DNA of 32,000 bases from an uncultured archaeon. Its GTDB lineage: Archaea > Asgardarchaeota > Jordiarchaeia > Jordiarchaeales > Jordiarchaeaceae. The position numbers and the translations under genes were made by a program. Below are positions 22,714-25,173 of this stretch, piece after piece. The notes beneath the pieces were generated by a model. That model saw only the letters and a list, made by a program, of their open reading frames with translations. It did not search any database and was not told where the DNA came from. The DNA is taken from assembly GCA_964510585.1 (NCBI GenBank), contig CAZECW010000033.1:19632-51631 (forward strand), given 5' to 3'. The stretch's first letter is position 1; the number at the start of each line of letters is the position of its first letter.

Positions 22714-23700
22714 ATGAGCGCAACCAAATTGAAATTCGTTATTCCGAAAGGATCGCTACAAGATGCTACACTACAACTTCTCGAACAAGCAGGTTACAGT
22801 ATTAAAGCTGTAGAACGCTCCTACCGCCCCTGGATAAACGATCCAGAAATCAGCCTTAAACTACTCAGACCCCAAGAAATACCAACCCTAATTCAAGAGG
22901 GAGCACACGAACTAGGAATAGCAGGAATAGACTGGGTTAATGAGACAGGCGCCGACGTAAAAATACTTTCAGAGTTAGACTACGGTAAGGTTAGTATAGT
23001 AATGGCAGTGCCAAATTCTTGGGAAAAGATAAACAGTCTATCTGAGCTAATAAGAGAATTCAGCAGCAACGGAAAACCCATTCGAATTGCAACAGAGTAT
23101 ATAAACATTACCTCAAGATACATAATGGAAAACAGAGAGTATCAAAAACACTACGGAAACAAAACCCCGGAAGTAATAACACCTTGGTCCCGCTATGGAC
23201 AAAACCCAAATGTTAAAATTATGCTCTCCTTTGGCGCTACCGAAGCGAAACCTCCCGAAGACGCCGATGCCATAGTCGACAACACTGAAACGGGAACCAC
23301 ACTAAAGAGCAACGAATTAAAAATAATTGAAGTATTATACAAGTCACAGGCGGTGCTTATAGCAAACAAAAAGGCCCTTAAGGAAAAATGGAAAGAAGAA
23401 AAAATTCGAGATGTCATGACCCTCATTTTAGGCGCGGTAGAAGCTAGGAAAAAGCTACACATCTTCATGAACGTCAAAGAAGAAAACATTGAAGCACTTC
23501 TAGAGCAGCTACCGGCTCTTAAACGCCCAACCATATCACCGCTAGCAGGAGCTGAAGGATGGTTCGCATTAAATACTGTAATAGCTAAGGAGGACCTAAT
23601 TAAACTAATACCGATTTTAAGAAAATTAGCCCAAGGAATAGTAGTTCACCCTGTGCGGCAAGTTCTACCTCTGGAAGAGATAGAAAACAAAAAAATCTAA
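22714..23700 (+). CDS. hisG: ATP phosphoribosyltransferase (long form)
   Basis: IPKGSL, RPQEIP, GIAGIDW, LDYGKVSIVMAVP, RIATEY, GATEAKP, DAIVDNTETGTTL, PALKRPTISPL C-terminal regulatory domain. Confidence 0.96.
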   Translation: MSATKLKFVIPKGSLQDATLQLLEQAGYSIKAVERSYRPWINDPEISLKLLRPQEIPTLIQEGAHELGIAGIDWVNETGADVKILSELDYGKVSIVMAVPNSWEKINSLSELIREFSSNGKPIRIATEYINITSRYIMENREYQKHYGNKTPEVITPWSRYGQNPNVKIMLSFGATEAKPPEDADAIVDNTETGTTLKSNELKIIEVLYKSQAVLIANKKALKEKWKEEKIRDVMTLILGAVEARKKLHIFMNVKEENIEALLEQLPALKRPTISPLAGAEGWFALNTVIAKEDLIKLIPILRKLAQGIVVHPVRQVLPLEEIENKKI

Positions 23701-23795: not shown

Positions 23796-24010
23796 TACTT
23801 AACTAGAGTGAATAGTTGACACTCTCCGCGACTAAAGTCGGGAGATTCTTGCTTCTGGCTCATCGGGAGCCTTAGGAAGCAATGGGTGTGCCATCACCCA
23901 GTTAACACGCCCTTCCCTCAAGGGAACGGCGTCTATGTTGGCACCCTCATGGGGGCTGCGTCTTATTTTAGCCTCTTAAGCCCAAGCCAAACCCTTCAGC
24001 TACCAACAAC
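23796..24010 (-). ncRNA. Candidate TnpB omegaRNA/reRNA scaffold plus flank-derived guide
   Basis: Stacked stems ACGCC/TTCCCT-TG-AGGGAA/GGCGT (23932-23907), TGGGTG/CACCCA (23900-23883), TTGCTTC/GAAGCAA enclosing GGCTC/GAGCC (23882-23849), then the right-end hairpin and TCAA. The 5' boundary is inferred from a TATA-like box. Confidence 0.6.
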
Positions 24011-24094
24011 TATTTATGTACCCTACTTTCAAATAAACTTTTTTGGCGATTCATCCCCACGACTTGAAGTCGGGGGCTTTCTCGCCAAGGTTTT
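23816..24094 (-). mobile_element. Non-autonomous IS200/IS605-family mini-element (PATE/MITE-like, 279 bp, no tnpA/tnpB)
   Basis: Minus strand, left end: TTAC | AAAACCTTGGCGAG-AAAG-CCCCCGAC-TTCAA-GTCGTGGGG. Right end: GAAT-CTCCCGAC-TTTA-GTCGCGGAG-AGTG-TCAA. GC 81/140 (58%) at 23821-23960 versus 17/60 (28%) at 23701-23760. Confidence 0.88.
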
Positions 24095-24186
24095 GTAAGA
24101 GGTTGTATAAACGCTTTTTAGGTGGTATTTTTAATAATCCAAGATGTATAGTTTTTCAAGAAGAGCCGACTCTTTTTCGACTAGAA

Positions 24187-25173
24187 TCAAAGACTACTCT
24201 CTATATCTCGAATCTGTTTCTCAATTTCTTCTTTTTCTCTAATTTTATCGTTTAATCTTTTTTCGTCTTCTAGTGACCCGAAACCTGCTTTAATCATAGT
24301 TTTAAGATCAATTATTTCTCTCTCAAGTTTAAGCTTTTTTGTCTCCAAGTTTGTTAGTTGAACATAGGCGGGGGCTCTATCCTCACTTGAAAGTTTTACC
24401 TTTTTTTCCTTTATGTAATCTAACATGTCGAGTCCAAGAGTTCTTAGTAGTTTTTTATCCTCCTCTGTTAGTAAACTATCAAGGTCAGACTCGGGCTTTT
24501 CCAGCCCCTCCTTTACACTTAAACCTTCTGCTTCGCTAAACTCTGCAAACTCTTTTTTGGTAGGCGCCTCCTCAATTTTTTCTGGAAATTCTTCCTCTTT
24601 GAGGCGAGTCAAGAATGTTGGAGACTCTCTAGGTTGCTCCACCGGTGGAGATTCGATTTCTATCATTTCTGCAGTTTGGGGAACCTTTTCAGTTAGAGTA
24701 GCTTCCTCAGGTTTTTCTAATAGAGGTTGTTGGTGTTCCCAGGTTTCAGGCAAAGGTTTTTCTTCTGGAATTTTTTCTTGGGTTTTTGTGAGGGGGCCTG
24801 TTTCGGGCTTTACGATTTCGGGGGCTACGGTTTTCACGAGATCTATTATTGCTTCAATTATATTCGCCACTTGTGCTCGAAGAGATTTGATTTCCTCTTT
24901 AACTTCTTTTTTAAGTATAGAAATATCTTCTCTTATTCCCATAATTTTGGAATCCAAATCGCCTATTTTCCCTAAAATATTTTCTGTTTCTACCACTGTT
25001 TCAGTCGCAGTTCTACTTTTTAGTCGCTCTTCTATTTCGTCGATTTTATCCATTTTTGTTTCCAGTTGTTGAATTCTCTCTAGAACCACTTTAAATTCAG
25101 TAGTTTTTTCAACCTCATTCAACAACTCATCAATCTCGCTTCTTAACTTATTTAGTCGCTCTCTAGTACTCAT
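24187..25173 (-). CDS. Coiled-coil protein with Pro/Glu-rich linker and C-terminal helical hairpin
   Basis: Heptad-rich residues 1-115, PE-rich middle, C-terminal LETKKLKLEREIIDLKTMIKAG...EKRLNDKIREKEEIEKQI; SD AGGAGTGGTGA. Confidence 0.8.
   Translation of the reverse strand: MSTRERLNKLRSEIDELLNEVEKTTEFKVVLERIQQLETKMDKIDEIEERLKSRTATETVVETENILGKIGDLDSKIMGIREDISILKKEVKEEIKSLRAQVANIIEAIIDLVKTVAPEIVKPETGPLTKTQEKIPEEKPLPETWEHQQPLLEKPEEATLTEKVPQTAEMIEIESPPVEQPRESPTFLTRLKEEEFPEKIEEAPTKKEFAEFSEAEGLSVKEGLEKPESDLDSLLTEEDKKLLRTLGLDMLDYIKEKKVKLSSEDRAPAYVQLTNLETKKLKLEREIIDLKTMIKAGFGSLEDEKRLNDKIREKEEIEKQIRDIESSL

Follow-up and report, generated by a model that had tools for sequence, protein, structure and literature searches.

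The window (the whole 32,000-nucleotide stretch of DNA that was analyzed) contains a 486-bp spacer between two convergent genes, and this spacer in turn contains a 279-bp gene-less element on the minus strand (24094-23816), with TTAC on its 5' side (24098-24095) and TCAA at its 3' end. What can such an element encode, and by which proteins could it be moved and used? The initial annotation interpreted positions 23796-24044, which comprise the right two thirds of the element and 20 nt of flank, as an orphan omegaRNA cassette composed of a candidate promoter, a scaffold, and a flank-derived guide without TnpB. The strings on which that interpretation was built are all present on the minus strand (AAAAAAGTTTATTTG at 24044-24030, TAGACGC at 23935-23929, GTGTCAA at 23822-23816, and CTATTCACTCTAGTTAAGTA from 23815). 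No open frame was found in the element, in which all three sense-strand frames are closed, and neither a transposase gene nor a nuclease gene lies inside it. The neighboring genes and the two ends are as follows.

22714-23700, plus strand: hisG (Pfam HisG).
24187-25173, minus strand: unannotated 328-aa open reading frame directly upstream of the element.
24095-24098, minus strand: TTAC, target and left cleavage motif; it would be the TAM, and it remains in the donor joint, outside the mobile DNA.
24033-24094, minus strand: left end, 97% identical to the left ends of tnpA-tnpB elements on contigs C162, C15, C49, and C42.
24080-24077, minus strand: guide tetranucleotide AAAG, directly 5' of the left-end hairpin.
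24076-24055, minus strand: left-end hairpin CCCCCGACTTCAAGTCGTGGGG, with the enclosing stem TTGGCGA/TCGCCAA.
23848-23845, minus strand: guide tetranucleotide GAAT, directly 5' of the right-end hairpin.
23845-23823, minus strand: stem D, the right-end hairpin TCTCCCGACTTTAGTCGCGGAGA, identified by RNAalifold and by covariation among 25 relatives.
23816-23822, minus strand: tail GTGTCAA, ending in the right cleavage motif TCAA, which is the element boundary.
23796-23815, minus strand: 3' flank CTATTCACTCTAGTTAAGTA, a candidate guide, as judged from TnpB biology, if the RNA reads through.

The 328-aa open reading frame (24187-25173, minus strand) has no Pfam matches, and its C-terminal part is rich in lysine and glutamate and has the look of a coiled coil. 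Read-through from this frame would transcribe the element as well.

Both ends of the element carry subterminal imperfect palindromes with guide tetranucleotides 5' of the hairpins, and there are no terminal inverted repeats. The AAAG/TTAC logic of the left end is that of IS608 from Helicobacter pylori (He et al. 2011, PMC3201880). As in IS608, TTAC and TCAA are the left and right cleavage sites, insertion occurs 3' of TTAC, AAAG precedes the left hairpin, and GAAT precedes the right hairpin. By analogy with this system (PMC3201880), stem D can be designated as the TnpA recognition hairpin. In contrast to IS608, the element has neither tnpA nor tnpB, the hairpin sequences and their spacing are slightly different, and TCAA ends 7 nt past the hairpin foot instead of 10 nt.

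Copies were counted by BLAST against the window's own assembly (G000; 3.78 Mb, 217 contigs). We found 29 complete copies with 90-98% identity, together with approximately 40 right ends and 50 left ends situated exactly at contig termini, where the partial copies represent assembly breaks with overlaps of ~140 nt. The family in G000 amounts to ~70 near-identical copies, each with its own unique flank and no gene inside. TTAC precedes 28 of the 29 complete copies (TCAC precedes the remaining one), and all 69 right ends finish with GGAGAGTGTCAA, beyond which the sequence is unique; the insertion motif and the flank proposed in the initial annotation are thereby confirmed. Orthologous empty sites are present in two sister genomes of the same genus (G003:C29 and G001:C116). 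In both, the flanks abut exactly and precisely the 279 nt between TTAC and 23815 are absent, which indicates that the element inserts 3' of a fixed tetranucleotide and does not duplicate the target site. Because the element is multicopy with unique flanks, has exact empty sites and IS608-like ends, and contains no open frame, it is a palindrome-associated transposable element (PATE), i.e., a non-autonomous, gene-less derivative of the IS200/IS605 family.

Three hot-spring DNA runs contain the organism, and in these runs the depth of element words is 40-300 times that of the flank, which should not be read as a copy number. At the present locus, the DNA runs gave no joint spanning the element; the empty site is known from the sister genomes. 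Approximately 90-110 of the 434 contig ends of G000 stop within the terminal 140 nt, left or right, of the element with k-mer-sized overlaps (for example, C193:1-140, C184:1-138, C62:1-141, and C30:1-141). Therefore, the PATE/IS605 family is a main cause of the fragmentation of this MAG, and roughly half of the contig breaks can be attributed to the element. In addition, an exact 52-nt repeat that starts at the last CAA of a PATE right end is shared by C62:12656-12707 and C75:18685-18736; the copy on C75 comes after TTACAA, and the sequences on both of its sides are unrelated.

The left end connects the PATE with tnpA-tnpB elements of the same genome. The first 66 nt are 97% identical, after which these elements continue into tnpA (Y1 HUH, 129 aa) and tnpB; tnpA lies downstream of such a left end on C162, C15, C169, and C7. 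The resident tnpA-tnpB elements are broken at contig ends in G000, and an intact element, designated as type A, was found on two metagenome contigs (L060 and L061) with the left end, tnpA, tnpB (393 aa), and the right end in this order, the TnpB proteins being 97-99% identical. A Y1 TnpA with matching ends is available in trans (Y1_Tnp in Pfam, E value of 3e-41, on a 97-99% identical metagenome copy), and the tnpB behind the same left end encodes OrfB_IS605 and Cas12f1-like TNB domains (Pfam). As for individual resident copies, those at C7:1-1093 and C162:1-735 (both on the minus strand) are decayed, with a frameshift in tnpB and near the tnpA start, respectively, whereas the copy on C169 is open to the contig end; full-length tnpA-tnpB copies are never assembled through in G000. 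The interior of the PATE contains the following features.

24030-24044, minus strand: BRE/TATA-like box 1 (AAAAAAGTTTATTTG), spanning the breakpoint of left-end homology.
24011-24020, minus strand: TATA-like box 2, TACATAAATA in this copy and TATATAAATA in the family consensus.
23941-24010, minus strand: PATE-specific 5' RNA module, 72% identical to gene-less elements of genomes G038, G314, and G315.
23982-23970, minus strand: small hairpin of the 5' module.
23962-23958, minus strand: GACGC of the 5' module, which may close on the 3' tail.
23956-23941, minus strand: hairpin GCCCCCATGAGGGTGC of the 5' module.
23877-23945, minus strand: decayed coding remnant of a TnpB C-terminus in frame 1, GANIDAVPLREGRVNWVMAHPLL, identified by blastx against the C81 TnpB.
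23907-23932, minus strand: stem A (ACGCC GTTCCC TTGA GGGAAG GGCGT), with GC-to-AU and UA-to-CG changes relative to tnpB-linked relatives.
23883-23900, minus strand: stem B (GGGTG ATGGCA CACCC), identified by RNAalifold and by covariation among 25 relatives.
23849-23882, minus strand: stem C (TTGCTTC...GAAGCAA) with the inner hairpin GGCTC CCGAT GAGCC, identified by covariation.

The homology of the left end breaks at position 66/67 of the element, inside box 1 after TTTAT, and the junction lies at 24033 according to the loose ends of DNA contigs. For positions 67-160, a counterpart was undetectable in either the type A element or the element on contig C81. Positions 186-278 are only ~75% identical to the type A right end, the last 41 nt are 93% identical to the C81 element, and the closing sequence of stem C is also C81-like. 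Because the 97% match is confined to positions 1-66 and the 3' part reaches ~75%, sequence comparison indicates that simply deleting part of the resident type A element would not yield the PATE, at variance with the deletion from which the initial annotation had derived the cassette.

The initial annotation also considered LGLKRLK* (frame 2, 23986-23963) as the possible last codons of the lost gene. This peptide is read in a different frame and from a stretch upstream of the true remnant, and it has no similarity to any of the TnpA or TnpB C-termini examined. The true remnant, GANIDAV...GRVNWVMAHPLL (frame 1, 23945-23877), corresponds to GRDNWVVAHPLL in the C81 TnpB and to GGHINWVMAHPL in that of type A. 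In the comparison with type A, GANIDAVPLREGRVNWVMAHPLL is aligned with GALNIGAVYNGGHINWVMAHPL, and the type A TnpB terminates in ...GALNIGAVYNGGHINWVMAHPLEVQI*.

The homology to the 3' end of tnpB and to the right end, which includes the remnant GRVNWVMAHPLL, extends up to the element boundary, and this stretch is predicted to fold into four stems. The fold has a z-score of -4.2, and none of 200 shuffled sequences was as stable. When the PATE was aligned with 11 tnpB-linked right ends (n = 12), RNAalifold recovered all four stems, with compensatory changes in 12 of the 32 pairs. Among 25 diverse relatives, 90.8% of the cells are paired, compared with 43-56% for slid partners, and both sides change in 27 of the 41 pairs; none of 500 shuffles reached the observed values, although this alignment was fitted to the covariance model and is therefore biased towards structure. 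The paired changes include one from U-A to C-G at the base of stem B in three copies within the family, and one from GGAGG/CTTCC in type A to GCTTC/GAAGC in both the PATE and the C81 element at stem C. The four intact stems up to TCAA described in the initial annotation were thus borne out.

A covariance model of length 148 was built from 10 tnpB-linked 3' ends, leaving out the PATE. It matches window positions 23969-23816 over all of its positions (1-148 of 148) with 83.3 bits and an E value of ~1e-27, which is the kind of match to TnpB omegaRNAs that the initial annotation had anticipated. In G000, this model gives 84 matches, only ~5-10 of which are linked to tnpB; four are of type A (150-167 bits), ~70 are of the PATE type (62-83 bits), and a few others include C81. 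No Rfam family was matched at the gathering score, and an E value of up to 10 gave one chance-level match to an unrelated sRNA. These comparisons support the assignment of the stretch as a homolog of the omegaRNA-encoding 3' end of tnpB that ends at the transposon boundary TCAA.

The partner of the 3' tail in the predicted structure has two candidates. In the first, which is weakly supported, GACGC (23962-23958) would pair with GUGUC (23822-23818) as a nested closing helix (helix 1 of the model), for which 85% of the cells are paired and the changes are mostly one-sided. The second is ACAU at 23938-23935 in the MFE structure. The pseudoknot between TAGACGC (23935-23929) and GTGTCAA suggested in the initial annotation was rejected, since four of the seven bases of TAGACGC belong to the 5' arm of the covarying stem A, with which it competes.

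The full-length elements have the same box as box 1 (AAAAAAAGTTTATAGG) ~47 nt upstream of the tnpA ATG. Box 2 is the better conserved of the two boxes, and PATEs of another Asgard genus have its TAAATAG motif in the corresponding position. In this copy, box 2 has a minority C at element position 81, which speaks against a functional promoter here. The 5' module that follows exhibits modest covariation. Gene-less IS605 elements of ~330 bp were observed in another Asgard family, where one copy has 40-50, mainly partial, matches in each genome (loci L155, L159, L163, and L165 in G314; L156 and L160 in G315; L149, L150, and L158 in G038). Their 5' half is 72% identical to PATE positions 99-189, and their 3' half resembles the local tnpB-only IS (L197 and L198), which suggests, at the level of sequence, modular evolution or an exchange of PATE parts. 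The 5' module was not found in the tnpB-linked IS of the G038/G314/G315 family, which share only the region from stem A onwards.

A second, independent PATE family, ~210 bp in length, occurs in the sister species G004 (L140-L147; contigs C124, C141, C37, C176, and C105). It consists of a left end and ~35 nt of the tnpA leader followed directly by AAATAGGTGCC, and it was derived from the type A element via a different internal junction. Stems A-D and the TATA-like box of the left end are retained, and the covariance model gives 78-90 bits. Because the G004 family keeps stems A-D and the 5' module is shared across two Asgard families, a function of the extra RNA module can be argued for.

The element itself lacks tnpB, and in this sense the orphan cassette of the initial annotation stands. 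The genome as a whole contains several tnpA-tnpB elements and five TnpB zinc-ribbon matches, so that the term 'orphan' applies to the cassette only locally. The candidate partners are the type A TnpB (393 aa; L060:768-1946) and the C81 TnpB (424 aa). Identification of a cognate tnpB, which the initial annotation had proposed as a check, succeeded as far as TnpB genes are present in the genome, but neither the genome nor 80 metagenome loci yielded a strictly cognate one. Among these 80 loci, which are relatives of the TnpB N-terminus, no right end is more than ~75% similar to that of the PATE. Contig-end walking in the MAG revealed no tnpB continuation, and a scan of genome contigs gave one relative with 61% identity, in a Ca. 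Hermodarchaeota MAG, as the nearest relative of the TnpB. Together with the relatives at the phylum level, this agrees with the Asgard assignment of the DNA.

Both candidate partners keep the RuvC-I and RuvC-III aspartates and have a Gly at the position of the RuvC-II Glu of Cas12f and canonical TnpB (IIVGDL and IVLGRL). [quoted passage not shown] 2023, PMC10691335). In both resident TnpB types, a Glu also stands shortly ahead of the zinc-ribbon TS motif (NERGTS and SEYKTS). In the C81 element (L058; G000:C81:4900-7643, minus strand), the tnpA part lacks the HUH histidines (PGYIQLF), and the tnpA part and tnpB lie in one open frame of 571 codons without a stop.

The predicted RNA can be compared with the omegaRNAs of ISDra2 and its relatives (Karvelis et al. 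2021, PMC8612924). As in those systems, the right end and the 3' end of tnpB gave rise to the scaffold, which stops at the transposon boundary, the guide would come from the flank, and the TAM would be the insertion motif. In contrast to omegaRNAs of the ISDra2 type, the scaffold is apart from any tnpB and has no matching Rfam model, and the likely partner TnpBs, as predicted from sequence, have Gly at the canonical RuvC-II Glu.

Given the scaffold homology, the TCAA boundary, the TTAC motif, the TATA-like box, and the presence of TnpB genes, a trans-acting omegaRNA is a reasonable reading of the locus. We consider with moderate confidence that the PATE RNA is probably such a guide, used by a TnpB encoded elsewhere for retention or homing. 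The element carries both TnpA recognition ends and, beyond the needs of TnpA, a further ~195 nt. These include a TATA-like promoter region, the PATE-specific 5' module, and the omegaRNA scaffold of four stems, which in full elements normally lies in overlap with the tnpB 3' end. The TnpA of resident tnpA-tnpB elements would mobilize the PATE in trans, transcription would presumably proceed through TCAA into the flank, and a TnpB encoded elsewhere in the genome may bind the PATE RNA in trans. Upon excision by TnpA, the restored site TTAC+CTATTCAC... would be cut by TnpB (predicted target, TTAC + CTATTCACTCTAGTTAAG) and repaired from the sister chromosome that still carries the element, resulting in its retention. 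This retention/homing scheme was demonstrated for full IS605 elements (Meers et al. 2023, PMC10055086). Because the scaffold is only ~75% identical to that of type A, only its last 41 nt are close to C81, and no strictly cognate tnpB was found, recognition of the PATE scaffold by a resident TnpB has to be assumed here.

The predicted guide is compatible with this scheme. With up to three mismatches allowed over its 20 nt, the flank of this copy has no second match in the genome, so that the search for guide matches suggested in the initial annotation returned only the element's own flank; such uniqueness fits homing or retention rather than regulation. By analogy with the model of Meers et al. 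(2023; PMC10055086), the sole expected target would be the restored empty site, TTAC followed by the flank. When 69 guides were searched, one perfect off-site match after TTAC was found, for the copy on C12, and there was no sign of regulatory targets. The C12 guide (G000:C12:8956-8975) matches all 20 nt directly after TTAC on G000:C154:2120-2143. The 198 nt downstream of this site are 98% identical to the C12 flank and the upstream sequence differs; therefore, the C154 site looks like a paralogous or strain-variant unoccupied site and not a promoter. An active TnpB-omegaRNA complex would be expected to cut it.

A trans-acting guide has to be weighed against an inert hitch-hiker, which would spread via TnpA only and carry the omegaRNA-like part as a functionless relic whose stems are intact since the copies are young. 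We regard this as a serious alternative, albeit one that is rather unlikely. It agrees with the 90-98% identity of the copies and with the polymorphism among ~69 of them, in which paired sites have 0.94 minor alleles per site and unpaired sites 1.63, a difference that is not significant (p = 0.16), so that a recent burst of transposition could be enough to explain the intact stems. It would also account for the failure to find a cognate tnpB in the genome or the 80 metagenome loci, and PATEs of only 52 bp, apparently still mobile, are present in Haloquadratum (PMC3119063). It would likewise fit the RNA data, which consist of low-depth contigs from other copies. The only RNA run yielded a 217-nt contig with a depth of 3.4 that spans the equivalent of 23969-23816 in a different copy and carries neither strand nor end information, with possible DNA carry-over; in total, two contigs with depths of 3-4 were obtained from other copies or relatives, and these were not counted as expression, being possibly DNA. 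A relic, however, does not readily explain why the complete four-stem module is kept in two PATE families that are independent and differ in their junctions, when a right end of ~45 nt suffices for TnpA (robust complexes of IS608 TnpA were formed with a 45-nt right end; PMC3201880). The compensatory changes between the PATE scaffold and tnpB-linked scaffolds, and the conservation of the PATE-specific 5' module across two Asgard families, also argue against it.

The stems could alternatively act as single-stranded DNA in excision and integration by TnpA or in second-strand priming, not as RNA. IS200/IS605 elements transpose as top-strand single-stranded DNA and their TnpA recognizes hairpins (PMC3201880); stem D is certainly a hairpin of this kind, and the whole structure lies on the transposed (top) strand. 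The TnpA of IS608, however, can form its complexes without the sequence 5' of the right-end guide tetranucleotide (PMC3201880). Moreover, stems A-C coincide with the omegaRNA-encoding region of tnpB elements, and several conserved G-U pairs would be weak in DNA. A role as DNA is improbable for these reasons.

Least of all do we expect the RNA to program a nuclease-dead or exapted, TldR-like TnpB for gene regulation, as the initial annotation had also envisaged, or to act as an antisense RNA on the convergent hisG, whose 3' end the transcript would enter in antisense orientation ~115 nt past the element, because the resident TnpBs keep both RuvC-I and RuvC-III aspartates, the guide is unique to its own flank, the only perfect off-site match after TTAC among 69 guides looks like a paralogous empty site, and the flanks differ from copy to copy, as they would for a transposon.

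For the favored reading of a trans-acting guide, the idea itself is not new. Meers et al. (2023; PMC10055086) already stated that omegaRNAs are often encoded by PATEs and depend on the TnpB of other IS elements acting in trans, and a further literature search gave nothing more specific. The definition of archaeal PATEs comes from Haloquadratum walsbyi (Dyall-Smith et al. 2011, PMC3119063). Like the PATEs of this species and of Geobacillus stearothermophilus (PMC10055086), the present element is gene-less, has subterminal hairpins instead of inverted repeats, causes no target duplication, is present in many copies, and appears to be mobilized in trans by TnpA. It is therefore a well-supported further example of a kind of element already described, a PATE with an omegaRNA module. 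In contrast to those PATEs, its host is a hot-spring Asgard archaeon with ~70 copies in a 3.8-Mb genome, the element is a mosaic whose left end is 97% and whose right part is 75% identical to resident IS, and its 5' module is common to PATEs of another Asgard family.

It is conceivable, though we offer this only as a doubtful extension, that PATEs of this type form an independent 'guide-RNA-only' selfish lineage that parasitizes TnpA for movement and TnpB for retention, with its own promoter, its own 5' RNA domain, and a 3' scaffold and ends that were swapped or co-evolved to fit the resident IS605 elements. If so, the ~70 copies would load the TnpB of the cell with ~70 different guides. If the RNA is made and used, the family would represent a natural case of a guide RNA that has been separated from its nuclease gene and multiplied alone. 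Such a case in an Asgard archaeon would come a step closer to the CRISPR arrangement of 'one effector, many guides', and it would provide a thermophilic archaeal TnpB with a compact and well-defined scaffold (~125-195 nt), on whose structure covariation already sets limits.
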